Assembly: GCA_038244115.1 (NCBI GenBank)
Contig: JBBRTU010000002.1
Span: 131,238-195,237, forward strand
Origin: Burkholderiales bacterium
Lineage (GTDB): Bacteria > Pseudomonadota > Gammaproteobacteria > Burkholderiales > JBBRTU01
Direction: 5' to 3'
DNA: 64,000 bases
A program made the position numbers and the translations under genes. Shown here in pieces: positions 15,103 to 54,605 of this stretch (positions within the stretch are counted from its first letter, which is position 1; every line of letters starts with the position of its first letter). The notes under the pieces are model-generated. The model was not told the origin of the DNA and ran no database searches. It worked only from the letters and a program-made list of their open reading frames with translations.

Positions 15103-17226
15103 ATGCGATACGTCCTGATCCTCTGCACGGTACTAAGTGCGATCCTGCTTTACCTGCTGTCTACGGCAAGTGCAAATACCGAGCTTTTCGCCAAAAACTA
15201 TCCGCTGCTACTCGGGCTCAACAGCGCACTGGCCTTGTCGCTGATGGGGCTGATCGGCTATCAGTTATGGGTGTTGCGGCGCAAGATTAAAGCCGGTGTT
15301 TTTGGCACCAAGCTGACGTTGCGGCTGCTGCTTATGTTCGGGCTGATGGCACTCATCCCCGGTTCGGTGATCTACGGCGTGTCAGTGCAATTTCTTGGCA
15401 AAAGCATTGAATCCTGGTTCGACGTACGCGTGGATAACGCCATGGAGAGCGGATTATCGCTAGGTCAGACGGCGTTGGACAACTTGTTGCACGACCTCAC
15501 CAAGAAAGCTAACACAATGGCTGTAGCGCTGGCCGAACAACCGGTCAACTCGCACCAGAGCCTGTTGAATACGCTGCGCGAACAAACCGGCGTGCAGGAA
15601 GCCACCTTGTTTAGCCAGCACGGTAGCATTATTGCTGTTTCCGGCAACGAGCATGCCGGGCTGATGCCGGACTTTCCGCGCACCGCCGTGTTGCGCCAGG
15701 TACGCCAGCAGCAGCCGTTCAGCCGGATCGAGCCGATTCCCGGGAAAGGCTTGTACATGCGGGTAGCCGTGCCGGTTAACGTCCTGTCGCTGCAAGAAGA
15801 CATCCGCATCTTGCAGTTGCTGGAGCCGGTTCCCAAGGATCTGGCAACTGCGGCCGAGACAGTGCAAAACGTTTACCGGGACTACCAGCAGTTGTCACTC
15901 TCGCGCCTGGGCTTGAAGCGCTTATACGGCCTCACCTTGACCCTTACCATGCTGCTGGCGCTGCTGACCGCGATTTCTCTGGCATTCGTGTTAAGCGAAA
16001 AACTCAGCGCGCCACTCAATATTCTGGCGGAAGGAACGCGCGCGGTGGCCAAGGGTGATTTCAGCCGCATGCATCCTGCACATGGTCGCGACGAATTGGG
16101 CGTGCTGATGCAGTCATTCAACAGCATGACGCGCCAGCTATCCGATGCGCGCGCGGCAGCCGAACTCAATCAACAGCAGGTGGAAACCGCCAAAGCCTAT
16201 CTGGAAAGCGTGCTGGCAAATTTGACCTCCGGCGTGTTGACCTTTGACGAGCGTTTTTATTTGCGCGCCGGAAATCCTGCGGCCAGCCAAATCCTGGGGA
16301 TTGATCTGTCCAAGCTGAGAGGACTTAAGCTGTTCGAATGGGGACGCGTGGGCGAAGCGGTGGACGCGTTTGCACAGGTTGTAGCGGCTGAGTTTCAGAA
16401 AAGTGCCAGCAAGGATTGGCAGATGCAGGTGGAATACAACGGCGGCATTGCCAACCAGATCCTGCTGGTGCGCGGTTCGCATATGCCAGCCGAAGTGGAC
16501 AATGGTTATGTGTTGGTGTTTGACGACATTACCCACCTAATCCGAGCCCAGCGTGACGCGGCCTGGGGCGAAGTAGCGCGGCGTCTGGCGCACGAAATAA
16601 AAAATCCGTTGACGCCCATCCAGCTGTCTGCGGAACGCCTCGAGCACAAACTGGCGGACAAGCTGGAAGCGGCGGACGCCGACATGTTGCGGCGCTCTAC
16701 CCAGACCATCGTCAACCAGGTGAGCGCACTGAAAAGCATGGTCAATGCTTTCGGTGAATATGCCCGCGCCCCTTCTGTCAATCTGCAGCAGCTGGATTTG
16801 AACCGGCTGGTGAGAGAAGTGTTGACCTTGTATGAACCGCTGGGCTCGAGCATGCACATTGAGCTGGCGCCGGATCTGCCGGAAATACAGGGCGACCCAA
16901 CCCTGTTGCGGCAGGTCATTCACAACTTGCTGCAGAATGCGCAAGATGCCCTGGCCGAAGAAGCATCGCCGCAAATTCAGATTGAAACCCTGGTTGTACC
17001 AGAAGGTGTGCGGTTTGCTGTGCGCGACAATGGCCCTGGTTTCCCGGAGCGCCTGATGGCGCGTCTTTTCGAGCCATACGCCACAACCAAGCAGAAAGGC
17101 ACCGGCCTGGGATTAGCCATTGTGAAAAAAATTATCGAGGAGCATCAGGGCAAGATTCAAGTCGAAAATCTTCAGCCGCATGGTGCCTGCATAGCCATAA
17201 CCCTGCCTATAGGAGAACTTGCCTGA
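15103..17226 (+). CDS. ntrY: NtrY-like sensor histidine kinase (TM-HAMP-PAS-HisKA-HATPase)
   Basis: 707-aa ORF with N-terminal TM helices. H-box LAHEIKNPLTPIQLSAE, N-box HNLLQNAQDA, and G-boxes RDNGPGF / GTGLGLAIV. Confidence 0.85.
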   Translation: MRYVLILCTVLSAILLYLLSTASANTELFAKNYPLLLGLNSALALSLMGLIGYQLWVLRRKIKAGVFGTKLTLRLLLMFGLMALIPGSVIYGVSVQFLGKSIESWFDVRVDNAMESGLSLGQTALDNLLHDLTKKANTMAVALAEQPVNSHQSLLNTLREQTGVQEATLFSQHGSIIAVSGNEHAGLMPDFPRTAVLRQVRQQQPFSRIEPIPGKGLYMRVAVPVNVLSLQEDIRILQLLEPVPKDLATAAETVQNVYRDYQQLSLSRLGLKRLYGLTLTLTMLLALLTAISLAFVLSEKLSAPLNILAEGTRAVAKGDFSRMHPAHGRDELGVLMQSFNSMTRQLSDARAAAELNQQQVETAKAYLESVLANLTSGVLTFDERFYLRAGNPAASQILGIDLSKLRGLKLFEWGRVGEAVDAFAQVVAAEFQKSASKDWQMQVEYNGGIANQILLVRGSHMPAEVDNGYVLVFDDITHLIRAQRDAAWGEVARRLAHEIKNPLTPIQLSAERLEHKLADKLEAADADMLRRSTQTIVNQVSALKSMVNAFGEYARAPSVNLQQLDLNRLVREVLTLYEPLGSSMHIELAPDLPEIQGDPTLLRQVIHNLLQNAQDALAEEASPQIQIETLVVPEGVRFAVRDNGPGFPERLMARLFEPYATTKQKGTGLGLAIVKKIIEEHQGKIQVENLQPHGACIAITLPIGELA

Positions 17227-18488
17227 TGGGCCCTAACAAAATTCTGGTGGTTGACGACGAAACCGGTATCCGTGAGTTACTGTCTGAGATTTTGTACGAT
17301 GAAGGCTACCAGGTCGTGCTGGCCGAAAATGCGGAACAAGCTCGCGCTGAGCGACAGCGCGGACGGCCTGATCTGGTGCTGCTGGATATCTGGATGCCGG
17401 ATACCGATGGCATCAGCCTGCTAAAAGAGTGGGCTGGCGCGGGTCTCCTCACCATGCCGGTGGTGATGATGTCAGGCCATGGCACCATCGATACGGCGGT
17501 AGAAGCAACCCGGATAGGCGCGACGGATTTTTTGGAAAAGCCCATCACCCTGCAGAAATTGCTGACTACGGTAAGCCGGGCGCTAAAAAGAGGCGAGGCC
17601 ATGGCACAACCCGCCATCATCCTGGCCGGTCTGGGCAAGAGTCCCCTCGCTGCCGAACTAAAGAGACGGCTCGCTCAGTTAGCCAACCTGAAGACCCCCT
17701 TGTTATTGCTTGGCGAAAAAGGTGCCGGTGCCGAGTTGTGCGCACGTTTCCTGCATCAGTCACATACCCCCTGGGTAAGTTTGGAGAACATGACGGTTCT
17801 GGGCGAAAGCCCCTTCGAACTGCTTGAACAGGCGCGCGACGGCATTCTTTATCTGGATGAGGTTGGCGAGCTGGGCAAGTTGGAACAGAAAGGCTTGCTG
17901 CTGCTCCTCGCCAAACTGGAAAAATTCAACGTACGGCTGATCTGTGCCAGCTCGCAGCCTTTGTCGAAACTGACCCAGGACGGCGCCTTCAACACCGAGC
18001 TGTATCAGGCTTTAAGTACCGTGGCGCTGTCAGTGCCCAGCCTGCGAGAACATAGGGAGGATATTCCCGAGATTGCAGCGGCAATCCTGGCACAAATGCT
18101 GGAAGAAAAAGAAACGCCCACACGGCAGTTAACCACGGCGGCGCTCAATGTCTTGCGCAATTACAACTGGCCAGGCAATCTGCCGCAGTTGCACAATGTG
18201 GTGCATACGCTGGCGCTGACTTCACTGGATGAGCAAATTAGTGCGGATGATGCCAAACGCGTATTGGCACAACACGACCAGACGTCTGCCGGCAACAGTC
18301 CTCTGCCGCTGGATTTGCCGCTGCGCGACGCGCGCGACGAATTTGAGCGCGTCTATTTCGAACACCATATCCGTTTGGAAGGCGGCAATATGAGCCGGGT
18401 GGCAGAAAAGGTCGGCCTGGAGCGCACCCACTTGTATCGCAAACTAAAGCAGCTTGGCATACGATTTGCGCGAAAGACCGATAGCTAA
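17226..18488 (+). CDS. ntrX: NtrX-like response regulator (REC + degenerate AAA+ + Fis-type HTH)
   Basis: 420-aa ORF with REC motifs (VVDDE, LLDIWMPD, EKP). The AAA+-like core has GEKGAGAE in place of Walker A and no GAFTGA. C-terminal HTH MSRVAEKVGLERTHLYRKLKQLGI. Confidence 0.8.
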   Translation: MGPNKILVVDDETGIRELLSEILYDEGYQVVLAENAEQARAERQRGRPDLVLLDIWMPDTDGISLLKEWAGAGLLTMPVVMMSGHGTIDTAVEATRIGATDFLEKPITLQKLLTTVSRALKRGEAMAQPAIILAGLGKSPLAAELKRRLAQLANLKTPLLLLGEKGAGAELCARFLHQSHTPWVSLENMTVLGESPFELLEQARDGILYLDEVGELGKLEQKGLLLLLAKLEKFNVRLICASSQPLSKLTQDGAFNTELYQALSTVALSVPSLREHREDIPEIAAAILAQMLEEKETPTRQLTTAALNVLRNYNWPGNLPQLHNVVHTLALTSLDEQISADDAKRVLAQHDQTSAGNSPLPLDLPLRDARDEFERVYFEHHIRLEGGNMSRVAEKVGLERTHLYRKLKQLGIRFARKTDS

Positions 18489-26005: not shown

Positions 26006-26259
26006 CGGGAATCTCCAATGGGTGCAATATTGCCAGACCCGGCGGGTTTTCAGGAGATTTTTGCATAATCAAAATTCAAGGCTGTTGCTTGGCCGAGCTT
26101 GTTGCTGATTGATATTTGGCGAGTTAGGATACGGGCTGCGCTAACCCAACCGCCTGCATGACAGCGTTGTGGTGCAAGCGCCGTATCCATACAGCAACCA
26201 TTATTACAATAGCATCCGATCAGTTAAAACTACATTACCTCGGTATAAACAGGCCCATC

Positions 26260-29103
26260 ATGCGAAAGATTTTGAAAACGAACCCAATGTTTTATTTCAG
26301 CGTTATGGTGCTCTTTGTTTTGCTGGTTAGCTTTTCCAACAGTATTCAAGCGGCAAACAAGAATGAGCAGGCATCCAAGTACTATGAAGATGCGTTGGTG
26401 CGCACTGAAAAGAAAGACTTTGCCGGCGCCATCATTCAGCTAAAGAATGCGCTGCAGCAGGACCCGAACATGCTGGCAGCGCACGTTTTGCTAGGCCGGG
26501 CCTTGCTTGAAAAAGGCCAACCCGACAGCGCCGAAGTGGAATTCGACAAATCCCTGACATTGGGGGTCGACCGCGCTGAGATCGCTATTGCACGCGCCCA
26601 AGCCTATGCCTACCAGGGGAAATACCGGCGCTTGTTGGATACTGTCCCCCTGGATGGTCTGGCACCTCTTGTCCGTCAGGGGGTGTTGTCCATCAGGGCC
26701 AATGCGCAAATGGAACTCGGCGACCTTAAAGCATCGAGACAGAGCCTTGAACAGGCTTATGCCATCACGGCCACCAAGCCTCCCCACCTGATCCTTATTG
26801 ATGCAAATTTGTCATTTCGCGAAGGCAAACCGCAAATCGCCCGGGGCCTGATCGACCAAGCCATCAAGCTCGATCCGAAAAGCGCCCCTTTCTGGAATTT
26901 CCGCGCCACGATTTCGCATAGTGAAAACGATTTCAAAGCGGCTCTCTCTGATTACAACAAGGCGCTGGTTCTCGACCCGAAATATCTCACCGCACGCCTG
27001 GCGCGTGCTTCGCTGCTGATGGATATGGCACAAGACAAACAGGCGGAGCTGGATTTGCAATATCTGCAGCGCGAATATCCCGAGGACCCGCGGGGCCTTT
27101 ATCTGGGGGCGTTGTTGTCCGAAAGGCAACACGACAGCGCGGCTGCCAAAAAGGCCTTGCATGACCTGACCAAGGTGCTTGACCCCGTTTCCCCGGAAAT
27201 ATTAAACCAGTCTTCTCAACTGCTTCTGCTAGGCGGCTTGGCCCACTTTAGTCTGAACCAGACGGAACAGGCCGCTAGCTATCTGCAGCGTTTGCTGGCG
27301 CTGGATCCCAAACATATTGCCGCACGCAAATTGATGGGGGCATTGCTGCTTAAAGAAGGCAATAGCAATGCAGCTATTGAAGTTCTGACGCCTGCCGTTA
27401 ACGCCACCCCCGATGATGCCAATGGGCTTTCGTTGCTGGCCAGTGCGTATATGGCCCAGAAGGATTTTCGCAAGGCCAGCGCGCTGCTTGAACGCGCTGC
27501 GCAGGTTACCGGTGGCGCGCCACAGTTTGAAAGTTCGCTTGGCTTCAGTCTGCTGGGCGGCGGACAAGTAAATCAGGGATTGGAGCATCTGACCCAGGCA
27601 TTTCGAAAAGACCCTGGACAACCTCAGGTAGGGGCTGCACTTGCCATACTGCATATCAAGCGCGGCCAGCCACGCCAAGCAGTCCAAGTTGCCGAGGCGA
27701 TGACACGGCGAGAACCCAATAGTCCCCTGGCGCTTAATCTGCTCGGCGTAACCCGTGTTGCCGCCAACGACCGTGCCGGGGGGCGTGCCGCTTACGAAAA
27801 AGCCGTAACGGCGGATCATAATTTCATGCCGGCCCGGCTCAATCTGGCCAAGCTGGATGTGATGGAAGGTAAGCACGATGTGGCACGAGAGCGGCTTGCC
27901 GCGATTCTCAAGGAGCAACCCAACAACACGCAGGCAATGGCTGAACTGGCCAATGTGGAAGAAAGTCTCGGTCGACTGGATGCAGCAATCCTGCAACTGC
28001 AAAAAGTACACTCGCTGGAACCGAAAAACATTAGCCCGGGGTTACATCTAGCGGAAATATACCTGCGCAAGGGTGAATCAGAGAAAGCGCTGAACCTCGC
28101 CAAGGATTTTGAAAACGTGAATAGCGCGGATCTGGAGGTTCTTGCCGTTGAAGGGCGCGCCTACGTAGCAGTGGGCAATCCCGGGTTGGCCCGGGTGATC
28201 TACAAACGCATGACCGCCATGGCCGGATTTGACATCGCGTGGCAATACCGTATCGCACAGTTGCAGCTCGGCGCCGGCGACCAGAATGCCGCCCTCTACA
28301 ATTTGGACAAAGCGCTTTCAGGTAGCCCTGATTACCTGCCAGCTTTGGCGCTAGAGACCGAACTAGAACTAAAAGGCGGCAAGTTGGCCGAAGCCGAGGC
28401 GCGCGCGCGCCGTATTGTCGGTCGCTACCCGGGGCAAAGCGAGGGTTACCGTTTGCTGGGAAATATTGCCATGGCACGTGGTCGCTTTGATGAGGCCACA
28501 ACCAATTTCCGCACAGCGCTGGACAAGGAACCCGGAACCGACTCGGTAATCCGGCTGTATCAAGCCAGCATTCGGGCAGGTCACCAGGCACAGGCGACCG
28601 AGATCATGACCGGCTGGCTCAAAGTACACCCAAATGACGATGGGGCCAGGTTGGCGCTTGCTGAAGGCCATTTGCGTGCCGGCAATATTGTGGCCGCGCG
28701 CGCTTTGTATGAAGCCATCTTGAAACGTCGTGGGGAAACTGTCGGAATTCTTAACAACCTTGCCGGCATTCTGTTGCAACAAGGGGAGACTGCGGCACTG
28801 GACTATGCCGAAAGGGCTTATCGCCTCGCCCCGGCTGATGCGGGGGTTGCTGATACCCTAGGTTGGGTCTTGGTAAAGCAGAACCAGGCCGAGAAAGGGC
28901 TGCGCTATTTGCGCGAAGCCAAGCTGCGCGATTCGACCAACGCCGAGATCCGCTATCATCTCGCAGCGGCACTAGAACGGCTGGGGCGCCCTGCCGAGGC
29001 ACGGCAGGAATTGGACCAGGCGCTCACAGGCAATACCGGCTTCCCAGGCATTGAGGATGCCAAAAAACTTCGCCAACGCCTTTCTATCCCGGCTACTCGA
29101 TGA
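26260..29103 (+). CDS. prsT: PEP-CTERM system TPR-repeat protein PrsT
   Basis: About 947 aa from the ATG at 26260, with a signal peptide followed by TPR repeats throughout (e.g. AIIQLKNALQQDPNMLAAHVLLGRALLEKG). Size and architecture match PrsT, and a PEP-CTERM gene lies adjacent. Confidence 0.75.
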   Translation: MRKILKTNPMFYFSVMVLFVLLVSFSNSIQAANKNEQASKYYEDALVRTEKKDFAGAIIQLKNALQQDPNMLAAHVLLGRALLEKGQPDSAEVEFDKSLTLGVDRAEIAIARAQAYAYQGKYRRLLDTVPLDGLAPLVRQGVLSIRANAQMELGDLKASRQSLEQAYAITATKPPHLILIDANLSFREGKPQIARGLIDQAIKLDPKSAPFWNFRATISHSENDFKAALSDYNKALVLDPKYLTARLARASLLMDMAQDKQAELDLQYLQREYPEDPRGLYLGALLSERQHDSAAAKKALHDLTKVLDPVSPEILNQSSQLLLLGGLAHFSLNQTEQAASYLQRLLALDPKHIAARKLMGALLLKEGNSNAAIEVLTPAVNATPDDANGLSLLASAYMAQKDFRKASALLERAAQVTGGAPQFESSLGFSLLGGGQVNQGLEHLTQAFRKDPGQPQVGAALAILHIKRGQPRQAVQVAEAMTRREPNSPLALNLLGVTRVAANDRAGGRAAYEKAVTADHNFMPARLNLAKLDVMEGKHDVARERLAAILKEQPNNTQAMAELANVEESLGRLDAAILQLQKVHSLEPKNISPGLHLAEIYLRKGESEKALNLAKDFENVNSADLEVLAVEGRAYVAVGNPGLARVIYKRMTAMAGFDIAWQYRIAQLQLGAGDQNAALYNLDKALSGSPDYLPALALETELELKGGKLAEAEARARRIVGRYPGQSEGYRLLGNIAMARGRFDEATTNFRTALDKEPGTDSVIRLYQASIRAGHQAQATEIMTGWLKVHPNDDGARLALAEGHLRAGNIVAARALYEAILKRRGETVGILNNLAGILLQQGETAALDYAERAYRLAPADAGVADTLGWVLVKQNQAEKGLRYLREAKLRDSTNAEIRYHLAAALERLGRPAEARQELDQALTGNTGFPGIEDAKKLRQRLSIPATR

Positions 29104-29197
29104 GTATTTGATGTTTGTCGAAATTTTTTACATCAGCGCCATGAGATTAAGGCGCCAATATTCTTAACACATTGATTGCAAATGAATTTAACTGCAC

Positions 29198-29213
29198 TGG
29201 CATGAAACTTGCT
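29198..29213 (+). promoter_or_regulatory. Sigma-54 (-24/-12) promoter TGGCATG-N4-TTGCT
   Basis: tggcatgaaacttgct matches TGGCACG-N4-TTGCW at all invariant positions (GG, GC, spacing). It lies 78 nt upstream of the ATG of the PEP-CTERM gene. Confidence 0.7.
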
Positions 29214-29290
29214 AGATTTCTTAAGCCAAGAGCGGAAGCAAGACGCTTCACGTAGCGTGACCAAAAAATAGATAGGCAGGGAGTATAACA

Positions 29291-30157
29291 ATGAAACCAA
29301 ACACACTTTTTACGATGATTCTCTCTTTAGCCGGGCTTGCCTTGTCTCTACCAGCCCAGGCTACGGCCGCGTATTCGTATTCCTGGAACCTTGATGCGAC
29401 AGGAACCGAAACTGGAAGCGGCAACTTTGGAAATACACGTACTTACGCCGGTACCGGAACCCCAACTCCAGCACCCATAAATAAGGTAACCGCCAGTGCC
29501 TGGGCCGACACTACTTCCGGCGCATCCACCACATCGGCTACCACAGCCAACAGCACATTAAACAGTGCTTACTTGGGCTATTACTCAGGAAACGGGCTGG
29601 GTGTATCGAATCGGTACGAGGGTATTGGCGTTACATCGCCTAACCACGCCATGGATAATGATGCAAATTATGACAGCATTGAGTTTAAATTCGATAGCGC
29701 CATTAAGCTCACCCAAGTAACGCTCGGTTATCCAACAGGCACCACTTATGACTCCGATATCAGCATATTGGCATGGACTGGCGCGGGCAGCCCTACATTG
29801 CTTGGGAACAAGTATGGGTCTCTGGTGGGGTCTGGCTGGACAGTTATTGGCAATTATTGCGATGTGTCAACGCTAGCGAACAAAACGGCGAACCTTTCCA
29901 CCGGCGTATCTTCCAGCTACTGGATAGTAGCCGCCTACAACAGCGCTTTTGGCTCTACCTGCATGAACGCGACGACTGGCGTATCTCAGTCCTGTAATAC
30001 CACGACCGCTGCGGGCTTAGATTACGTTAAGGTGAAAATGCTGGCCGGTTCCACTCCCACCACCCCCACCCCCTCGACCACTGGTGTTCCTGAGCCGGCC
30101 ACGCTGTTTCTGTTTGGTGCCGGTCTTTTGGGCCTGATCAGGGCGCGCAGGCAGTAA
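29291..30157 (+). CDS. PEP-CTERM sorting-domain surface protein
   Basis: 288-aa ORF with a signal peptide and a Thr/Ser/Gly-rich body. The C-terminus GVPEPATLFLFGAGLLGLIRARRQ is the canonical PEP motif plus TM plus basic tail. Confidence 0.9.
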   Translation: MKPNTLFTMILSLAGLALSLPAQATAAYSYSWNLDATGTETGSGNFGNTRTYAGTGTPTPAPINKVTASAWADTTSGASTTSATTANSTLNSAYLGYYSGNGLGVSNRYEGIGVTSPNHAMDNDANYDSIEFKFDSAIKLTQVTLGYPTGTTYDSDISILAWTGAGSPTLLGNKYGSLVGSGWTVIGNYCDVSTLANKTANLSTGVSSSYWIVAAYNSAFGSTCMNATTGVSQSCNTTTAAGLDYVKVKMLAGSTPTTPTPSTTGVPEPATLFLFGAGLLGLIRARRQ

Positions 30158-30190: not shown

Positions 30191-30224
30191 AAAAAATGGA
30201 GTCCATAAACGGACTCCATTTTTA
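30191..30224. terminator. Bidirectional rho-independent terminator
   Basis: Sequence aaaaa-atggagtcc-ataaac-ggactccat-ttttat: a 9-bp stem flanked by an A-run and a T-run. It sits between the PEP-CTERM gene (+) and tRNA-Ala (-). Confidence 0.8.
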
Positions 30225-30226
30225 TT

Positions 30227-30302
<76 letters not shown>

Positions 30303-39679: not shown

Positions 39680-40389
39680 GCCTGCTGGAAGTGCGCGGCT
39701 TGTCCGTGTCCTATGGCGGCATCAAGGCGGTGCGCGGTATCGACCTGGAGGTTTGTGAAGGCGAGTTGGTATGTCTGATCGGCGCCAACGGCGCGGGCAA
39801 GACCACCACCTTGAAAGCGCTAGCGGGACTGCTGCCGTCGCGCGGATCGGTGGCTTATCAAGGGAAAAGCATACTTAATTCTCCCTCGCATGAACTGGTG
39901 AAACAGGGCATCGCCCTGGTGCCGGAAGGACGTGGTATTTTCGGACGACTCACGGTAGCAGAAAATTTGGAAATGGGCGCTTATAGCCGCCATGATCGCG
40001 CTGCAATTAAATCTGATTTGCAGCGCGCATACACGCTATTTCCCCGCTTGTTTGAACGCCACGCGCAAAAGGCTGGTACGCTTTCCGGCGGCGAACAGCA
40101 AATGCTTGCCATAGGCCGCGCGTTGATGAGCAGACCGAAATTGTTATTGCTCGACGAACCCAGCATGGGCCTGGCGCCGCTCATGGTTGCGAAAATTTTT
40201 CAAACAGTTAAAGAAATTTCCGCCGAGGGCGTTACCATATTGCTGGTGGAGCAAAATGCCAGACAAGCGCTGGAGGTGAGCCACCGTGGTTACGTCATGG
40301 AAAGCGGAGCGGTGGCAATGCAGGATGAGGCAAAAATGTTGTTCAACAATCCCCAAGTAAAAAGTGCTTATTTGGGAGAATCTGCATGA
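39676..40389 (+). CDS. livF: LIV ABC transporter ATP-binding protein LivF
   Basis: The GTG at 39676 overlaps the livG stop (GTGA). Walker A GANGAGKTT, signature LSGGEQQML, Walker B LLLLDEPSMG. Confidence 0.9.
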   Translation: MSLLEVRGLSVSYGGIKAVRGIDLEVCEGELVCLIGANGAGKTTTLKALAGLLPSRGSVAYQGKSILNSPSHELVKQGIALVPEGRGIFGRLTVAENLEMGAYSRHDRAAIKSDLQRAYTLFPRLFERHAQKAGTLSGGEQQMLAIGRALMSRPKLLLLDEPSMGLAPLMVAKIFQTVKEISAEGVTILLVEQNARQALEVSHRGYVMESGAVAMQDEAKMLFNNPQVKSAYLGESA

Positions 40390-42014
40390 GTACTGATTTC
40401 GAAAGTAAGCGAGTACTGGTTGTGGATGATGACCACGGCATGCGCAGCTCCATGCGCGTGATCCTCAGCACTTTTGGCATCACCCGCTCTGACATGGCGG
40501 CCACTGCCAATGAAGCGATCCGCCGTCTGCAAAACTTACCCTACGACATTATCATGTGCGACTACTTCCTGGGTGATGGCCGCGATGGCCAGCAACTGCT
40601 GGAGGAATTGCGTCACAATCGTCTCATTAAATTATCTACAGTATTTGTCATGGTGACCGCGGAGCGTGGCTACGAAAAAGTAGTGAGCGCGGTTGAGTTG
40701 GCGCCGGACGACTATCTCATCAAGCCGTTTACCGGCGAGCAACTGCGTTCCCGCCTAGAACGCGCGATTTTAAAAAAAGAAGCATTCGCTCCGGTCTACG
40801 AGCTTATGGAAAGTGGTGATTTTCGCGCCGCAATCGCAGCATGTGACGCCATGCTCAAACAGGAGAGCAAGTACGCCATTGACTTTATCCGCCTCAAGGG
40901 AGAGCTGTGCGTTACAGTCGGCGATTTCGCGGAGGCTGAGCGTATTTACCAGCAAGTATTGAGTTCACGAGCCATTCCATGGGCGCGCATGGGTCTGGGC
41001 AAGGCGCTATTTCTTCAAGACAAGTTTGAGGAAGCAGAAGAAATTTTCCAGGAGGTCGTTACAGCCAGTCCTCAATATCTCGAAGCATACGACTGGCTTG
41101 CCGATGCGCATGCCGCCGCAGGCAAGGGAAACGAGGCGCAGGAAATCTTGGCGGCGGGGGCCGCGCGCGCGCCCAACACGCTGCCCAGGCAACGAAAATT
41201 GGGCAGAATAGCTCATCGTAATGGCGACCTGGAGGCGGCGGAGAAGGCTTTTTCCGCCGTGGTGCAAAAAGGCAAACATTCGTATTTTCGCAGCCCGGAC
41301 GACTACGTCAACCTGGGAGGCGTTTTATCGGATAAGGGCAATTTTCAGGAAGCCTTGTCTTTAATGAAGGAGGCGCGCACCCAGTTCAATCACTCCCCCG
41401 AAGCTTCGATGTGCGCGGCAGTGATGGAAAGCGTCATCCACAAAAAGACCGGCAACGAGGAAGAGGCGCAAGCCTCACTCGACGAGGCGTTGCAATGGCA
41501 GGAACGCTACAAGCCGCCTGTTTCAAACCAGATGAAACTCAATATGGCCAATGCCTGTTTTGTGAATGGCCGCGAAGAAGTAGGCAACGAAATTGTCGGC
41601 GACCTGATCAAGAACAACCATGAAGACAAGGCCGTGATGAAACTGGCGGAGCGCATGTTTGAATCTATCGGTCGCGGTGATGCGGGTAAACGATTGATTG
41701 AGGCCAGTTCCAAAGAAATTATTCGCCTCAATAACCAGGCGGTGCGTAAAGCGCAGGAGGGCGACCTGGAAGGCGCCATCGCCATGCTGAAAGACGCGGC
41801 GGTGAAACTGCCGGGTAATGGTCAGATTGTGTTAAACGCTGCTCACGCGCTGTTGGCTTGTGTCGATAAAACAGGCTGGAATGCCGAACACATGGCGGAT
41901 GCGAAACGCTTTCTGGAAAGCGCAAAAGCAAAAGATCCATCTAACCCAAAACTGGGCAAGCTCAGCGCATATCTTCAGGAAGTCGGCAAAAAATACGGTT
42001 CGGGCAAAAGTTAA
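40386..42014 (+). CDS. Response regulator with REC domain fused to a long TPR region
   Basis: 542-aa ORF with REC motifs VLVVDDD, DIIMCDYFL (acceptor Asp), MVTAE and LIKPF. About 400 aa of TPR-like helical repeats follow. The ATG overlaps the livF stop (ATGA at 40386-40389). Confidence 0.8.
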   Translation: MSTDFESKRVLVVDDDHGMRSSMRVILSTFGITRSDMAATANEAIRRLQNLPYDIIMCDYFLGDGRDGQQLLEELRHNRLIKLSTVFVMVTAERGYEKVVSAVELAPDDYLIKPFTGEQLRSRLERAILKKEAFAPVYELMESGDFRAAIAACDAMLKQESKYAIDFIRLKGELCVTVGDFAEAERIYQQVLSSRAIPWARMGLGKALFLQDKFEEAEEIFQEVVTASPQYLEAYDWLADAHAAAGKGNEAQEILAAGAARAPNTLPRQRKLGRIAHRNGDLEAAEKAFSAVVQKGKHSYFRSPDDYVNLGGVLSDKGNFQEALSLMKEARTQFNHSPEASMCAAVMESVIHKKTGNEEEAQASLDEALQWQERYKPPVSNQMKLNMANACFVNGREEVGNEIVGDLIKNNHEDKAVMKLAERMFESIGRGDAGKRLIEASSKEIIRLNNQAVRKAQEGDLEGAIAMLKDAAVKLPGNGQIVLNAAHALLACVDKTGWNAEHMADAKRFLESAKAKDPSNPKLGKLSAYLQEVGKKYGSGKS

Positions 42015-42029
42015 TTTTAGAGGCGAAAA

Positions 42030-42725
42030 ATGGCAGACCAACTCGCGCAACAACCACTTACCCCAGATTTGGCCACCCTCCTTGCCGGCAATATTCACGA
42101 GGTAAAAAACCTTCTGGCGCAATTGTTCCTCGCCCTGGACGAAGCCTCGTTTACTGCACAAACCGATTGCCCCCATCTGGCGCAACGCCTCACCGAGATG
42201 CGTTTGACGGGGCGCCGGGTGCATGACCGGCTGCTGCATATCCTCACTGTGTACAAAGCAGAAAGCGGGTTTTTTTCCGCCAACCTCAATGCATACGATC
42301 CCGCCGAAGTAATTGAAGATCTTGCGCTGGAAGCAAAGTCCCTCGTGGGCAAGCGCTTGAGCGTGACCAATGAATGTCACGCACCGCCACATTGGTATTT
42401 TGATCGCTACCTGGTGGAAAGCGCGCTGACCAACGCGCTACACAACTCGCTACGTCAGGCTCGCTCTCGTATCGCGCTCAGTGCGCATGATGAAGACGGT
42501 TATTTGGTGCTGAAAGTCGAAGACGACGGCCCCGGCTTTCCAGAGGACATGTTGCGAAACGATTCGGTACCATTGTCCAATGGAGAGGAAGGCCGCACTG
42601 GACTGGGTTTGTATTTTTCCCGCACAGCCGCCGCCGCTCATCGGGACAAGGAACGAGCCGGCTTCGTCCGCATCGAAAACGGCGGGAGCTTAGGCGGCGC
42701 AGTGTTTTCGCTTTATCTGCCGTAA
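42030..42725 (+). CDS. Soluble sensor-less histidine kinase core (DHp + HATPase_c only)
   Basis: 231-aa ORF with H-box NIHEVKNLL about 20 aa from the N-terminus, N-box LTNALHNSLRQA, G1 EDDGPGFP and G2 GRTGLGLYFS. It has no TM or sensory domain. Confidence 0.75.
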   Translation: MADQLAQQPLTPDLATLLAGNIHEVKNLLAQLFLALDEASFTAQTDCPHLAQRLTEMRLTGRRVHDRLLHILTVYKAESGFFSANLNAYDPAEVIEDLALEAKSLVGKRLSVTNECHAPPHWYFDRYLVESALTNALHNSLRQARSRIALSAHDEDGYLVLKVEDDGPGFPEDMLRNDSVPLSNGEEGRTGLGLYFSRTAAAAHRDKERAGFVRIENGGSLGGAVFSLYLP

Positions 42726-43049
42726 CACGTGGTGTGTCCAAACTTATGTAGGCAATAGTAGCGCAGGCACATTGACCACCTGTGTCGACCCTCATTGACC
42801 GAGTCTCTGACTATACCCTTGCAATAGCCGCTTTCGGGTGGAGGTTCCACTTACCTTAAATGTCGCAGTCGTGCCAATTGCTGCCATATGTGAATGTCCG
42901 TTGTTGGATCGCGAAATAATGCCGACTATTATTGCTAACCACCTTAGCCGGTCGCGCCACGCACAATTGACGTCGAAAAACTTTACACTTTTCAACGCTC
43001 AACGAGCGATCACTTTCCCAATATAATGAATTAATTGTCTTTATTTTTT

Positions 43050-43065
43050 CGGCATGATTATTGCT
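43050..43065 (+). promoter_or_regulatory. Sigma-54 (-24/-12) promoter CGGCATG-N4-TTGCT
   Basis: cggcatgattattgct has GG and GC at the correct spacing. It is nearly identical to the element at 29198-29213 and lies 86 nt upstream of the start at 43151. Confidence 0.6.
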
Positions 43066-43150
43066 TAAGTTTCCGGCAGTACCAATAAGCTGCGTAGCTT
43101 CTTTTCAAACGCACGAAATACACTCAATAATTATTTAACTGGAGGAAAAT

Positions 43151-43867
43151 TTGAAGTCCAACTCTTGCACCCTACTTGTAATCACATCCCTGTGCCTAGG
43201 TTCGCTGTCTGTGTCCTCTGCATATGCGGCTAGCTACTCAATTGCCGTTATGAATATAACAAGCGGTGGGTTTGTCGCTTATGACTATCTAAATCAACCG
43301 GTTACCAACCCAGATTCAGGCGGTACTTTCACACCTTTTTCAATAATTGGATCTAATACGAATTTGGTCGGGGGCTATCTCGGCAACACCAGTTCTGGCG
43401 CTTTAAGTGGGTTTTGGTATGGCGGCGCATTCCAGATGTACACCGCGCCTTCCAATTTGGGCGGCACTTATGTGCCAGCAGGAACTGTTCAAGGCGGTCT
43501 AGTACCTAGCGGCACGCTAGATAATGTTGCCGGCACTATAACAATGGATTTAAGCTCTTTATTTGCTTACTGGGGTGGTCTTGACTTTCACCAAGGAACC
43601 GGAAAGAACGACGGAGTAACTTCGACACTTGCAACTGGACTATGGGACTCAAGCAGCGGGCATTACAGTTTGTCATGGACTTCAAGTACTAATTTTTCAA
43701 ATAGCAATCCTTACGTGTGCGATTTTCAGTCACCAACTTGCTCGGCAAAATACACGCTAGAAGGTTATGCTGCCACCAGTGCAGTACCTGTCCCTGCGGC
43801 AGTTTATCTGCTTGGATCCGGCATACTTGGCCTCTTAGGCTTTGTTAGCAGGCGCAAGTCAGCTTAA
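43151..43867 (+). CDS. Secreted protein with VPxPA-type (PEP-CTERM-like) C-terminal sorting signal
   Basis: 238-aa ORF with a TTG start 6 nt after ggagga and a signal peptide. The C-terminus is SAVPVPAAVYLLGSGILGLLGFVSRRKSA (motif + TM + basic tail). Confidence 0.75.
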   Translation: MKSNSCTLLVITSLCLGSLSVSSAYAASYSIAVMNITSGGFVAYDYLNQPVTNPDSGGTFTPFSIIGSNTNLVGGYLGNTSSGALSGFWYGGAFQMYTAPSNLGGTYVPAGTVQGGLVPSGTLDNVAGTITMDLSSLFAYWGGLDFHQGTGKNDGVTSTLATGLWDSSSGHYSLSWTSSTNFSNSNPYVCDFQSPTCSAKYTLEGYAATSAVPVPAAVYLLGSGILGLLGFVSRRKSA

Positions 43868-43887: not shown

Positions 43888-43913
43888 AAACGGCGACCAT
43901 TGTGTCGCCGTTT
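43888..43913 (+). terminator. Stem-loop, probable terminator between convergent genes
   Basis: aaacggcgac-cattgt-gtcgccgttt, a 10-bp stem. The weak T-tract (ttt) is partly inside the stem. Confidence 0.55.
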
Positions 43914-44031: not shown

Positions 44032-45321
44032 CTAAATCGGTTCAAAGTCTGCGGCTATGGCGTCAGCGGTTGTAGCGTTCAAACCCGCTTTGTTGGCAAA
44101 TTTCAACCAGCTATCCAGGGCGGCGCGCACGTCCGCCAGCAAATCCAATGGGCGACGGACGCCAAAACGATCCGCTTCTATCAATAAATCGGCGCGCGTA
44201 ATCGCGCCGAACTTCCCGTTGACGTTCATCAGATGCTGATAAGTCCATTCCCCCCGGGGGTTGTAAGCATGCGTCACGTCGTAGGCCGGAGCCAGTTCCC
44301 ATGATCCGCCCTGCTTCAGGCGGAAAGCAGAATTCTTGGTGTGATCGTCACAGTTTTTTGCCATGACATTAAATGCCATGCGGCGGAAAGCTTGGCTGAT
44401 GGCTTCGTCTCCCAATTTGAGCTTGGCGATAACCATGAAAAGCTGGGCGTAGGCATGGGTGGCGCGTTGCTTGTAGTCAAGGTGATCCAGGGCGCAGAGT
44501 GTTTGCACGTGGTGCTTGATAGTGCCTTGGTCACGCGCTTCACGGTCGAAGCGGCGAGTCATGAAGTGAGCTCGGCCACCTTCTTCCAGCAACCGACAAG
44601 GTGACATGCTGATGCCGGCGGCAGTAGCCATCAGCTGGTAGGCGTATTCGATGCGGCCGTAATCCGCAGTGCCGCCCAATTCCAGGTCTTTGCCAATGCC
44701 ATCGAACTTGAGCAACCAATGCTCGAAGCCGGGGGCGGCATCGAACTGGCCGCTGCGAATCTGGTTTGTCTGCGGGTTCCAAGTGACGACTGCTTTCGCA
44801 CGCGCGCCACCCGCAGAGGTGCCGACCCGGATGACATTGGCGAGCGCTGCCTGCGCCTGCACGTCGCCGGACAGATCGCCATGAACCACTTTGCGCGCAG
44901 TTTCTACCAGCGTTTGCATCTCCAGCGGTTCGGCGCTTTCACGATGAGCGCCGCGTGCGGGTTTAAATTCCAGCGCGCCCATGCCACGCTTGCCCATGTA
45001 GGCGAGACGATCGAGCGTGGTGATGGCGCGTTTTTCGACCCCCTTGCGGGTCATCCAGGCATCGATTAGCGCATTGCCGAAGTCGTCGGGCAGCGCGTCG
45101 GCAAGCAATCCGGGCAGTCGTTTGAAGCTGGGTTCGGAAAGATCAGGAAAAGCAAAGGTGGGCTGGATATCATCCAGCGGCATAGTGAGCGGTGCCAATT
45201 CGATTCCGCTACGCCGCCAGGCGGGGTCGTAGGCAAACACATAACAGCCCAGGCGCGGATCTGGCGCCACGGCGCCAACACGCTTACCCCAGATGCGCAC
45301 TTCAATGACTGGGGTATCCAT
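44032..45321 (-). CDS. hipA: Type II toxin HipA-family Ser/Thr kinase
   Basis: 429-aa ORF with a typical HipA N-terminal coupling domain (IWGKRVGAV...) and a kinase core with NCDDHTKNSAF (catalytic loop D.H.KN). Confidence 0.9.
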   Translation of the reverse strand: MDTPVIEVRIWGKRVGAVAPDPRLGCYVFAYDPAWRRSGIELAPLTMPLDDIQPTFAFPDLSEPSFKRLPGLLADALPDDFGNALIDAWMTRKGVEKRAITTLDRLAYMGKRGMGALEFKPARGAHRESAEPLEMQTLVETARKVVHGDLSGDVQAQAALANVIRVGTSAGGARAKAVVTWNPQTNQIRSGQFDAAPGFEHWLLKFDGIGKDLELGGTADYGRIEYAYQLMATAAGISMSPCRLLEEGGRAHFMTRRFDREARDQGTIKHHVQTLCALDHLDYKQRATHAYAQLFMVIAKLKLGDEAISQAFRRMAFNVMAKNCDDHTKNSAFRLKQGGSWELAPAYDVTHAYNPRGEWTYQHLMNVNGKFGAITRADLLIEADRFGVRRPLDLLADVRAALDSWLKFANKAGLNATTADAIAADFEPI

Positions 45322-45641
45322 CAGCTTTCTTTGCGTAGCTTGGCAGTTCGCCGCGCGCGTTGCGGCGCTTTGGCCTGACGCAACAAATCTAGTGGGTTAA
45401 CGCTGATTTCTGGCGCAAGCATCTCAATCCCCTGAAGATATTCGAGCGCCTTCAATACACGCAACAAAGTTTCCACAGTTGAGCCTCGCCCGGCTTCAAG
45501 ATTGCGCAGCGCTTTTTCAGAGATGCCGGCTTTCTCGGCGGTGGTACGTTGATCTAGATTGCGATTTAGACGCAAGCGTCGTAGCCGTTTCCCTAGTACG
45601 GTTTGGAGTTCTTCTGGCGTGTTGAATAGCAGTTCACTCAT
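45321..45641 (-). CDS. hipB: HipB-like XRE-family HTH antitoxin
   Basis: 106-aa ORF with HTH LDQRTTAEKAGISEKALRNLEAG. Its stop overlaps the hipA start (TGATG). Confidence 0.85.
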   Translation of the reverse strand: MSELLFNTPEELQTVLGKRLRRLRLNRNLDQRTTAEKAGISEKALRNLEAGRGSTVETLLRVLKALEYLQGIEMLAPEISVNPLDLLRQAKAPQRARRTAKLRKES

Positions 45642-45913: not shown

Positions 45914-47377
45914 TCACAGCATTTTCAGATATTCAATCAAGGCCTCCTTATCAGTAGCAGGCAGCGTGGTGCCGTATTCATGCCCCCGGTTGCTGTTACC
46001 TTTGCGGCTTGCGTCCTGCTTGGAGCCTACGCGTTGCGCATCCTCACCCTGCACGATGAAGCCGGCATTCACCTGGTCGTACACGTCATAACCACGGTAG
46101 AACACGCTGGGCCGTTCGGCGGCTGGCGTCAATAGATCGCGTAGCGTCGGCACCGAACCATTGTGCAGGTAGGGCGCACGCAGCCAGATGCCGTCGAGAA
46201 AGGGGATGAGGTAACCGGTCAGGGTTTCCTCCACCAGCCCCTTGCGTTCCAGCCCCATGTCGCGCACCGTCTTGTTGGCGGCAATGGCGGCGGACTTGTT
46301 CCACGAATCCAGGCGACCTCTGTCGGTGCCGATCTCGGCTAGCAGCATGCGTGTGCCGGTACGCGCGCTAGCGTGGCAACTGGCGCAGTGCTGGTCGAAC
46401 ACCGTCTTGCCCTGCGCCGCTTTGTGCTTATCCAGCGCAAACGGATACTTCGGCGCGGGTTCTTTCAACAAATACTCGTGCAACCACTTTACCTGGCCGA
46501 GAAACGCTTGCTTGTCGTGCGGCGCGGCGCCGAGCACGCCGAGCGCAGAATCCATAATGACGGAATAAGCGTCGTGGCTATCGCCAGCCAGATTCATGAA
46601 CATGCCTTGTTCCGCTTTGTACTTTTGCAGGTTCCATACCGATGGCATGTCTGTCGGACCGAAGGTGTCGTCCATCGGTGCCTTGATCATGAAGTACTTG
46701 GTGAGGTTCATCGCGTCATCGCGCCCGCGCCCCCAGTCGGGAAAGTCCTTGCGGTAGATCCAGGCGAACTGCGCTTCGCGCTCGAGCAATCTCTTTTTTG
46801 TCATGGGGATGATGAGGTAGCGGTAGGCCAATTTGTCGATCCAGTCGAGATCGGTCACCAGCGCAATTTCGGCCATTATGTTGTCGGCATTAAAGCGCGG
46901 ATCGCGCGCACAGTCGACCAGGTAGCGGAAAAATGCCTGGACGTTGGTGGTGTGCCCCGGGCCGGCCACCACGTAAGTTGGCTGCTCATCCGGCTTCGAG
47001 CGGTAGCTTGCGGTGTGACACACAGCGCAATTATTACCCACACGCGGGAAGCCGATAACCTTTTTGGTGAATCCTACCGGCAGCTCCTGGCCCGGTTCCC
47101 ATGGCACACCGAGCGAAGCGTAGCCACCCGGCCCCGGCAGTTTTTCCGGGAACATGCGCGGCAGTACGTAGAAAATCCAGTAAGGAATGCCGGCATCGAA
47201 CTCGGCGCCGATGGAGCCGTATTTGAAACGCATCTCGGGGGTGGCCGTCACCCAGTCAGGCTGCGCCTCCTCGCGAAAAAACTTGTACCAGCCGACAAAG
47301 GCGCCCACCATGCCGAGCACCAGCAGCGCAATGCCGAACGCACGCAACAGCCGGCAATTTTTCATCAAGCAAGCCAT
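45914..47377 (-). CDS. Membrane-anchored di-haem c-type cytochrome, CCP/MauG-like C-terminal signature (paralogue A)
   Basis: 487-aa ORF with an N-terminal TM anchor and two CxxCH sites (CAVCH, CASCH). Motifs LRAPYLHNGSVPTLRDLL and a C-terminal GHEYGTTLPATDKEALIEYLKML. RBS gggga precedes the ATG. Confidence 0.75.
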   Translation of the reverse strand: MACLMKNCRLLRAFGIALLVLGMVGAFVGWYKFFREEAQPDWVTATPEMRFKYGSIGAEFDAGIPYWIFYVLPRMFPEKLPGPGGYASLGVPWEPGQELPVGFTKKVIGFPRVGNNCAVCHTASYRSKPDEQPTYVVAGPGHTTNVQAFFRYLVDCARDPRFNADNIMAEIALVTDLDWIDKLAYRYLIIPMTKKRLLEREAQFAWIYRKDFPDWGRGRDDAMNLTKYFMIKAPMDDTFGPTDMPSVWNLQKYKAEQGMFMNLAGDSHDAYSVIMDSALGVLGAAPHDKQAFLGQVKWLHEYLLKEPAPKYPFALDKHKAAQGKTVFDQHCASCHASARTGTRMLLAEIGTDRGRLDSWNKSAAIAANKTVRDMGLERKGLVEETLTGYLIPFLDGIWLRAPYLHNGSVPTLRDLLTPAAERPSVFYRGYDVYDQVNAGFIVQGEDAQRVGSKQDASRKGNSNRGHEYGTTLPATDKEALIEYLKML

Positions 47378-47386
47378 GCTTTTCCC

Positions 47387-48862
47387 CTAGAAAGTTTTCA
47401 TATATTCGATGAGTGCTGCCTTGTCTTCCGGCGGCAGTGTGGTGCCGAAACGCGGGCCATCGTGGCCCTGATTGCCGTTGCCGGACAGTCTGGTGTCATA
47501 GCGGAAATATTTGCGCGCGCCTTCCTCTGCGACAGTGGAAACGAAGCCCATGCGAACGGCGTCGTACACGTCGTATCCCCGGTAAAATATTTTTGGCCGC
47601 CTGTCTGCGGGTTCGAGTAGATCGGCCAGGGTCGGCACCGAACCATTGTGCAGATAGGGCGCGCGCAGCCACAATCCATCCAGCGGCGCATTGGCGTAAC
47701 CCCAGGTTTTACGGAAGTGGCTGAAGCGCTCGTCGCCATAGCCGGCATACACCGTGGCCTGGTTCAGCGCGAGGTCGGGCGTGTAGGAATCCAGGCGCCA
47801 ACGGTCCGTGCCGATGTCAAGAATCGGCGTGACCTTGCCCACGTATTCCCCGCTGAAGTTGCTGCCATTCACACCGTGGCATGCAGCGCAGTATTGTTGA
47901 TACACACCTTTTCCGCGCGCCGCTCGGTTCTGGTCGATGGGATAAGGCCAGGGCGGCGGGGTGGCAGTGGCCAGCCAGGCTTCCACGCGCTTGAGATTAT
48001 GGCGATCCAGCGTGGGCGGCGTGGTGCCGGCGCCCAACGCAGCGCTGTGATTGCGCTCCTCCAGCTTGTCATTATTGCCGTCCCAATGCAGTTGCATGCC
48101 ACGCTTCTTGGCCTGATTCCAGATGGCGGGGAAATCTGCCGTGCCGATCAGTTCGTGCGGGTCGGCGCGGTGCCAGGGCATGTTGAACAACGCCTTGGCC
48201 GAGTTGAAAGTATCCACCCTACCCGGCCCCCACTCGGGTTGACCATCGATAAAGGAGAAGCGCTCACGCAGCATCATCAGTTGTTCGCGCATGAGCAAAG
48301 TTGCCAGCGGGTAGACCAGGTAATGGTCGATCAGGTCGAGTTTGCCGCCGGTCTTTTCGATGGCGGGAATCATATATTCGCGCGAGAAACGCTTGTCGGC
48401 GGCACACTGAAAGAAAAATTTCTCGAAGCGCATCAGATCGAAAGAATTAGCCGGCATACCGGCGACAATGCGTGGCGTGGATGCTGGCGTGTCGCGCACG
48501 GTGTTAACGTGGCAAACCGCGCAATTGAGGAACACCCGATTCATGCCTTGATAGCGGCGCTGGGAAGTACCAATGGGAAGGTCGCGACCTTTTTCGTAGA
48601 TCATGCCGAGTGAAGCATAACCCTTGCCCGGCAGCAGATCCGGGCACACCTCAGGCAGCGCTTTCCAGATGCGGTAGGGGAAACCGGAGACGCGCTCGCC
48701 ACCCAGAGAGCCATACTGGAAGTGCTGTACCGGATCGCGGTATTCCACGGGGGAATCGCCGGAGAAGCGCCAAGCCAGGTACAGCACCAGCAGCAGGCCG
48801 ATACCCGCCAGGAAAAAAAGCGCGGTGCATATACATCCGCGCAGAGTGCAAAGTCGAGACAT
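47387..48862 (-). CDS. Membrane-anchored di-haem c-type cytochrome (paralogue B)
   Basis: 491-aa ORF colinear with paralogue A, with CAVCH and CAACH sites. Motifs LRAPYLHNGSVPTLADLL and GHDGPRFGTTLPPEDKAALIEYMKTF. Confidence 0.75.
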   Translation of the reverse strand: MSRLCTLRGCICTALFFLAGIGLLLVLYLAWRFSGDSPVEYRDPVQHFQYGSLGGERVSGFPYRIWKALPEVCPDLLPGKGYASLGMIYEKGRDLPIGTSQRRYQGMNRVFLNCAVCHVNTVRDTPASTPRIVAGMPANSFDLMRFEKFFFQCAADKRFSREYMIPAIEKTGGKLDLIDHYLVYPLATLLMREQLMMLRERFSFIDGQPEWGPGRVDTFNSAKALFNMPWHRADPHELIGTADFPAIWNQAKKRGMQLHWDGNNDKLEERNHSAALGAGTTPPTLDRHNLKRVEAWLATATPPPWPYPIDQNRAARGKGVYQQYCAACHGVNGSNFSGEYVGKVTPILDIGTDRWRLDSYTPDLALNQATVYAGYGDERFSHFRKTWGYANAPLDGLWLRAPYLHNGSVPTLADLLEPADRRPKIFYRGYDVYDAVRMGFVSTVAEEGARKYFRYDTRLSGNGNQGHDGPRFGTTLPPEDKAALIEYMKTF

Positions 48863-51746: not shown

Positions 51747-51866
51747 GGAGTTTCTCCCTTGGGCGATAAGTTTTTGGTGTCTGCCATGGTGGTTTCCTCG
51801 AAGCTGAAAATGGTAGTTGGGCGTGGTGGGGTAAGCGGGGGCGCTTGTGTTTTTGCCGTGGATGCT

Positions 51867-51886
51867 GCTGCGCGGCGCCGCGCAGC
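51867..51886. repeat. Perfect 20-bp GC-rich palindrome in intergenic spacer
   Basis: gctgcgcggc|gccgcgcagc, read directly. It lies in the 225-bp gap between the 846-aa cytochrome gene and the lipoprotein gene. Confidence 0.8.
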
Positions 51887-51971
51887 TCGGCTGCAGACAC
51901 TGGGTAAACCTCGCGGCGCTGGAGCAAGTTTTGCGTTTCGCTTCATGTCAGTTCCTGGAATGCCGTTCGAA

Positions 51972-54512: not shown

Positions 54513-54605
54513 ATCGTTTTCTCCAATTAAGTGTAGTGATTAGTGCTGCCTTGGTTGCCTTAATCAGTATAGACAAGGCAAAAAAAAGTAAAGGTGGCGA
54601 CAAAT

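Follow-up and report, generated by a model that had tools for sequence, protein, structure and literature searches.

Two predicted sigma-54 promoters with a shared upstream box precede the two sorting-tail genes of a 64-kb window

Background

The upstream region that is the subject of this work was described for PEP-CTERM genes by Haft, Paulsen, Ward and Selengut (2006, BMC Biol 4:29; PMC1569441). It begins with a 17-nt element termed motif 1, which carries TTTACA at its 3' end and is sometimes repeated, and which is separated by 62.8 nt on average (SD 10.6, range 32-92) from motif 2, likewise of 17 nt and conforming to the -24 GG / -12 GC pattern of sigma-54 promoters; a further 71 nt (SD 38.5) lead to the start codon of a usually monocistronic PEP-CTERM gene (PMC1569441). 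Of 167 proteobacterial PEP-CTERM genes, 99 were preceded by this region, whose phylogenetic profile was that of PrsK/PrsR/PrsT, and motif 1 was proposed to be the site of PrsR (PMC1569441). The NCBIfam model TIGR02915 is accordingly named 'PEP-CTERM-box response regulator'. No report of direct PrsR binding to motif 1 was found in the searchable literature, in which the binding is itself an inference.

Two pepA genes provide experimental counterparts. In Aquincola tertiaricarbonis RN12, pepA adjoins prsT, its transcription start as determined by primer extension lies behind a -24/-12 promoter, and it needs RpoN1; the authors also noted a predicted enhancer sequence upstream (PMC9850573). In Zoogloea resiniphila MMB, pepA needs RpoN as well as PrsK/PrsR, as the work of Gao et al. 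(2018) is summarised in PMC9012009. In wastewater bacteria, the formation of flocs and biofilms is under the control of PEP-CTERM proteins and PrsK/PrsR, and correct maps of the regulon are therefore useful there.

Here we describe two regions of this kind in a 64-kb stretch of DNA (the window). Their architecture has been known since 2006, and the two sites are ordinary further examples of it, which bring no new principle to regulatory biology.

Results and discussion

Two box-promoter pairs and the genes behind them

The features of the two sites are as follows.

26158-29103 (+): prsT, encoding the XrtA/PEP-CTERM system TPR-repeat protein (NCBIfam TIGR02917, 607 bits, cut-off 312)
29116-29132 (+): site 1 upstream activator box, TGTCGAAATTTTTTACA, corresponding to motif 1 of Haft et al.; predicted PrsR binding site
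29165-29177 (-): IHF-consensus site AATCAATGTGTTA (consensus WATCARNNNNTTR), its centre 28 nt upstream of the -24 GG
29198-29213 (+): site 1 predicted sigma-54 (-24/-12) promoter, TGGCATGAAACTTGCT, corresponding to motif 2 of Haft et al., assigned from sequence and conservation
29291-30157 (+): gene of an XDP1 exosortase-dependent surface protein with signal peptide and PEP-CTERM tail GVPEPATLFLFGAGLLGLIRARRQ
30197-30227 (+): intrinsic terminator hairpin TGGAGTCC-ATAAAC-GGACTCCA followed by TTTTTATTT, read from the sequence
42971-42987 (+): site 2 predicted upstream activator box, CGTCGAAAAACTTTACA (motif 1), with one mismatch at the first base
43050-43065 (+): site 2 predicted sigma-54 (-24/-12) promoter, CGGCATGATTATTGCT (motif 2), GG and GC at consensus spacing
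43151-43867 (+): gene of a secreted protein of 238 aa with a PEP-CTERM-like tail AVPVPAAVYLLGSGILGLLGFVSRRKSA, found by translation and a tail regular expression
43889-43912 (+): 9-bp hairpin AACGGCGAC-CATTGT-GTCGCCGTT followed by a T-rich tail, read from the sequence

At site 1, gtcgaaa-ttt-tttaca was read at 29117-29132 and tggcatgaaacttgct at 29198-29213. The GG (29199-29200) and the GC (29211-29212) of the latter are spaced as in TGGCACG-N4-TTGCW, which bears out the fit to the sigma-54 consensus claimed in a preliminary description of this DNA, and the box does start 82 nt before the GG, as was also stated there. The stop codon of prsT is 12 nt ahead of motif 1. Between TGTCGAAATTTTTTACA and TGGCATGAAACTTGCT there are 65 nt (66 nt from TTTACA to GG), and 77 nt separate the promoter element from the start codon of the 29291-30157 gene, which has the ribosome binding site GGAG at 29280-29283. 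Transcription is predicted to start near 29223-29225.

The preliminary description had both elements recurring before the gene at 43151, with the box 79 nt before the GG, and this was found in the sequence: gtcgaaa-aac-tttaca lies at 42972-42987 and cggcatgattattgct at 43050-43065. At this site 2, CGTCGAAAAACTTTACA and CGGCATGATTATTGCT are 62 nt apart (63 nt from TTTACA to GG), the start codon follows 85 nt after the promoter element, and the predicted transcription start is near 43075-43077. The gene has a TTG start codon and the ribosome binding site GGAGG at 43141-43145. As for the extent of the box, the core GTCGAAA-N3-TTTACA proposed earlier stood, whereas its left border did not: the conserved element includes one more base on this side, which brings it to 17 nt and puts its first position at 29116 and 42971, respectively.

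Compared with the region of Haft et al. (PMC1569441), nothing essential is different in the window. Both boxes are intergenic, 17 nt long and end in TTTACA, and both promoters have the -24 GG and -12 GC. The spacers (65 and 62 nt) and the distances to the start codons (77 and 85 nt) are in the middle of the published ranges, and we therefore regard the two sites as a correct rediscovery. The genes are monocistronic, they follow long intergenic regions, and PrsT is encoded here. With respect to the downstream PEP-CTERM gene, the first gene passes the protein models and the second has only a PEP-CTERM-like tail. The link of PEP-CTERM systems to PrsK and PrsR, invoked in the preliminary description, agrees with the same study and with the Zoogloea genetics in the form summarised in PMC9012009. 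The pepA genes of Aquincola and Zoogloea resemble site 1 in being PEP-CTERM genes next to prsT behind a -24/-12 promoter. In Aquincola, however, pepA lies upstream of prsT, whereas the cargo gene of the window lies downstream of it; moreover, the cargo families of both species differ from XDP1.

The product of the 29291-30157 gene exceeded the cut-offs of NF041927 (176 bits, cut-off 125), TIGR02595 (23.9 bits, cut-off 16) and PF07589 (29.5 bits, cut-off 20.7). The product of the 43151-43867 gene scored below every curated PEP-CTERM model (22-24 bits with NCBIfam models whose cut-offs are 65-100) and had no Pfam match at E<=0.01. Its tail has VPVPA instead of VPEP, and the hydrophobic stretch and the RRK are kept. 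The hairpin at 43889-43912, which was not among the entries of a consensus terminator scan, is probably the terminator of this second gene, judging from its stem and tail. With hairpin terminators after both genes, both appear to be monocistronic. A tRNA-Ala(CGC) gene (30227-30302, -) is convergent with the XDP1 gene and abuts its terminator hairpin, and this one hairpin with its T-runs could serve as terminator for both genes.

Occurrence of the motifs within the window

When both strands of the 64 kb were searched, exact matches to GTCGAAA-N3-TTTACA were found at the two sites only, and the same was true of GGCATGA-N3-TTGCT. The expectation for the exact box, which has 13 fixed bases, is about 0.002; if two mismatches are allowed, shuffled sequences give 0.88. 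The composite was also sought under looser criteria, with at most 4 mismatches in motif 1, at most 3 in motif 2 and a spacer of 45-95. At 0-1 mismatches this yielded the two sites alone; it also gave one match at chance level, a reversed reading of the site 1 box, and 30 shuffled windows gave one relaxed composite match altogether. Since the window has just two ORFs with a sorting tail of the PxP-hydrophobic-basic type, and each of them sits behind a composite site, the two composite sites precede the two sorting-tail genes.

Three candidates were rejected as chance occurrences. A box with one mismatch at 59440-59455 lies within purH, the sigma-54-like sequence TGGCAAGATTATTGCT (54489-54504, -) lies within the signal-peptide codons of an ORF starting at 54512, and the reversed site 1 box, paired with TGGCATCCTCAATGCC (29062-29047, -), has 4+3 mismatches and would direct transcription antisense into prsT.

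The coding region of prsT contains a degenerate box, GTCGGAATTCTTAACA (28741-28756), 375 nt ahead of the box of site 1. It has 2 mismatches, at a level of 0.88 such matches expected per window, and may represent either a second, distant activator site or a chance match. The functional box of L123, one of the metagenomic loci described below, accepts GTCGGAA.

We also considered whether TTTACA might be the -35 hexamer of a sigma-70 promoter, the GG/GC string being incidental; TTTACA does match TTGACA at 5 of 6 positions. A promoter scan of both intergenic regions listed no sigma-70-type promoter using this box, and at neither site is there an acceptable -10 hexamer 16-18 nt downstream. The sigma-70-like hexamer pairs that were listed are at chance level and away from TTTACA, those at site 2 being located at or downstream of the sigma-54 promoter. 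For lack of a -10 element this reading was rejected, and the comparative data presented in the next section also speak against it; we hold it to be highly improbable. The predicted 5' leaders gave Z-scores of -0.96 and -0.48 relative to shuffled sequences and thus show no unusual structure, and a search of the window against Rfam returned tRNA as the sole match.

The composite motif in other genomes

A collection containing one genome per species (185,579 species) was scanned with the pattern GTCGAAANNNTTTACA-N{50,80}-GGCAYGNNNNTTGC. At least 119 loci with the composite were obtained, compared to about one expected by chance; the sample was selected by exact match and covers spacers of 50-80 nt only. 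Alpha-, beta- and gamma-proteobacteria and a few other groups are represented among the matches listed, none of which is from the species of the window. In 99 of them a complete ORF of 100 aa or more lies just downstream, and 77 of these 99 ORFs encode a PEP-CTERM protein, a count that was identical whether a regular expression or Pfam PF07589 at E<=0.01 was used. In comparison, a PEP-CTERM tail was present in 19 of 2142 other ORFs of the listed loci (Fisher p ~1e-103), so that the enrichment upstream of PEP-CTERM genes on which the preliminary description had made its proposal depend was indeed observed among the matches listed from the 185,579 species genomes. Variant tails (VPLP, VPVP, IPAP, VAAP) follow the composite in about 10% of the matches listed. 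In neighbouring genes with real PEP tails, which had not been selected by the pattern, a degenerate composite was present in 6 of about 9 among the matches listed.

Positions outside the search pattern were compared in 118 loci among the matches listed. The base ahead of GTCG is T in 81% of them, and the three N positions of the box favour W-W-Y. The resulting 17-nt element, TGTCGAAAWWYTTTACA, is an imperfect dyad, TGT-N11-ACA, and the site 1 box matches it exactly, dyad included. No position is conserved after TTTACA in these loci, and the GG/GC about 64 nt away is always present; furthermore, the unselected flanking T and T/T positions agree with the sigma-54 consensus. These observations speak against TTTACA being part of a sigma-70 promoter.

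These data also bear on whether the likeness of the two upstream regions could be due to chance, or to a recent duplication of a gene with its promoter, and have no regulatory meaning. The window offers just two copies, which is as far as this explanation is favoured. By chance, far fewer than 0.01 occurrences would be expected of two exact 13-base boxes that each have a sigma-54 match at 62-65 nt, and the pair recurs ahead of PEP-CTERM genes in at least 119 species. The sequences preceding the two window genes can be aligned in the motif blocks only, and the 29291-30157 and 43151-43867 products are unrelated except for the tail, which argues for shared regulation and not for duplication. On these grounds the explanation was refuted, and we give it practically no weight.

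To examine conservation at site 1, the XDP1 protein alone was used as a query against metagenome contigs. Four homologues were found, three of which had enough upstream DNA, and in all three motif 1 and motif 2 are present right after the 3' end of prsT. The site 1 box is kept in the orthologous loci L122 and L123, and the sigma-54 promoter in L122, L123 and L124. The XDP1 orthologues of L122 and L123 are 77% identical to the window protein, and the alignment shows both motifs to be conserved. Relative to the window (29133-29197), the spacers of these two loci (L122:1352-1425 and L123:551-623) contain a 9-nt tandem duplication (TTTAGCTGC twice), and because of it they measure 74-75 nt from TTTACA to GG.

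The combination of box and promoter is of practical use in annotation, since it identifies genes of the exosortase/PEP-CTERM regulon without recourse to protein models. From the promoter architecture at site 2 we argue that the 43151-43867 product is probably an exosortase cargo protein of the PrsR regulon, co-regulated with XDP1 despite failing the PEP-CTERM models.

At a minority of the sites among the matches listed, the exact composite is followed by genes other than cargo genes. These include a membrane GGDEF diguanylate cyclase in three Thiobacillaceae (L004:1271-2728(-), L025 and L111; spacer class 52-53), the XrtB/PEP-CTERM-associated LuxR-type regulator EpsA (L072:3443-4198(+)), a PAS/HisKA_3 histidine kinase (L069:529-1737(-)) and a Sel1-repeat (Sel1/SLT) lytic transglycosylase (L076:3213-4118(+)). 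Such arrangements suggest that PrsR may feed into c-di-GMP and other regulators.

Spacer length and IHF-consensus sites

Among the 119 matches listed, three classes of TTTACA-to-GG distance can be told apart. The shortest, of 51-56 nt, has 25 members and a mean of 52.7; the main class, of 59-67 nt, has 74 members and a mean of 63.7; and the longest, of 71-80 nt, has 20 members and a mean of 75.4. Neighbouring classes among these matches differ by about 11 nt, that is, by about one helical turn. With 66 nt, site 1 is at the edge of the main class, and one of the 119 matches listed has the same value. In L122 and L123 the 9-nt duplication shifts the box from the ~64-nt to the ~75-nt class, and lineages may move from one class to another when about 9 nt are inserted.

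Of the 119 spacers listed, 33 contain a perfect IHF consensus (WATCARNNNNTTR), compared to 0.95 in shuffled sequences. The centre of the consensus is 25-29 nt upstream of GG in 23 of these 33, and 24 of the 33 have the orientation found at site 1. The IHF-consensus site of site 1 is a predicted DNA-bending site between box and promoter; no perfect IHF consensus was found in the 62-nt spacer of site 2, which has an A+T content of 68%. Taken together, spacer A+T is 62-68% at the window sites, and among the matches listed it averages 60%, versus 41% for whole loci.

In a term search of Haft et al. (2006), the three spacer classes, the positioned IHF consensus, a target with a sub-cut-off VPVPA tail and sites ahead of non-cargo genes were not found, nor was a link of PEP-CTERM with IHF or with spacing classes found in the searchable literature. 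We tentatively propose, at chances somewhat short of even, that PrsR-dependent promoters follow a joint rule, consisting of three spacer classes, an IHF site about 27 nt upstream of GG, and a regulon extending beyond canonical PEP-CTERM cargo. Such an extended regulon may cover proteins with VPVPA and VPLP tails, the GGDEF diguanylate cyclase and EpsA. Spacer classes and positioned IHF sites are what is expected of enhancer-dependent promoters and represent only a modest extension of the published description.

Predicted mechanism and the identity of the activator

Promoters activated by proteins of the NifA/NtrC type, for example that of nifH, combine an upstream activator sequence TGT-N10-ACA, an IHF site and a -24/-12 promoter. 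The dyad lies about 80-100 bp before the promoter, DNA is bent by IHF in between, and the spacing is dependent on the face of the helix. By analogy, the window sites would operate on the same principle. The likeness of the boxes to the NifA sequence is a resemblance only, because site 1 has TGT-N11-ACA and site 2 CGT-N11-ACA instead of TGT-N10-ACA; in addition, the window box differs in having the GTCGAAA/TTTACA core and would belong to another regulator of the NtrC family and to another regulon.

Very probably, the two sites belong to the PEP-CTERM/exosortase regulon as enhancer-dependent sigma-54 promoters, with PrsR acting at the box. In the mechanism we envisage from the sequence features, sigma-54 RNA polymerase would occupy the -24/-12 element (29198-29213 and 43050-43065) as a closed complex, and PrsR, a response regulator of the NtrC family, would bind, after phosphorylation by the membrane kinase PrsK, as a dimer or oligomer to the 17-nt dyad TGTCGAAAWWYTTTACA, whose end lies some 64 nt ahead of the -24 GG. 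Looping of the A+T-rich spacer DNA, which at site 1 would be aided by a bend at the IHF site (29165-29177), would then allow the AAA+ domain of the activator to open the promoter. The transcript from each promoter would cover one gene, with about 67-75 nt of 5' leader ahead of it and a hairpin terminator behind it, and from each transcript a secreted protein would be made whose C-terminal tail is handled by the exosortase.

The main rival to this mechanism is that the promoters are sigma-54 dependent as proposed, with the box bound by a regulator other than PrsR, such as the NtrX-like protein encoded at 17226-18488 or some other factor. The assignment of PrsR to motif 1 rests on phylogenetic co-occurrence and on mutant phenotypes, not on a footprint, and the window contains an NtrY/NtrX-like pair and no prsR. 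On the other hand, the phylogenetic profile of the motif is exactly that of PrsK/PrsR/PrsT (Haft et al., PMC1569441), prsK and prsR mutants of Zoogloea lose pepA expression according to the summary in PMC9012009, NtrYX is far commoner than the motif, and prsT adjoins site 1. We therefore regard a different activator as improbable. The earlier suggestion that the shared distal box is a candidate site for an enhancer-binding protein is supported by the comparative evidence, and we infer from the same evidence that this protein is PrsR.

Neighbouring genes

No prsK, prsR or rpoN gene was detected within the 64-kb window by NCBIfam and Pfam scans. The NtrY/NtrX-like pair, consisting of a sensor kinase and a sigma-54-type response regulator, is encoded at 15103-18488. 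Its regulator (17226-18488) was rejected as a PrsR candidate, having scored 173 bits with the PrsR model, whose cut-off is 503; with the NtrX model it scored 298 bits, which is under the cut-off of 600.

Directly upstream of site 2 (40386-42725), a protein of 542 aa that joins a response-regulator receiver to PrsT-like TPR repeats is encoded, together with a short soluble histidine-kinase core of 231 aa, which is weakly similar to the C-terminus of PrsK among others.

On the other side of the second cargo gene, the minus strand at 44032-45641 encodes a HipA-like kinase (429 aa, with weak YjjJ/HipA similarity), whose gene is preceded by that of a HipB/Xre-type antitoxin (106 aa). By their similarities, the two genes just downstream of the second cargo gene probably represent a type II toxin-antitoxin pair. 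They are followed by a run of large genes with little or no family assignment (45914-57590, -). Two paralogous proteins of this run, of 487 and 491 aa, resemble di-haem cytochrome c peroxidases; next come three proteins (685, 290 and 846 aa), of which the third has weak cytochrome c motifs, and the run also includes a 994-aa protein with a patatin-like domain.
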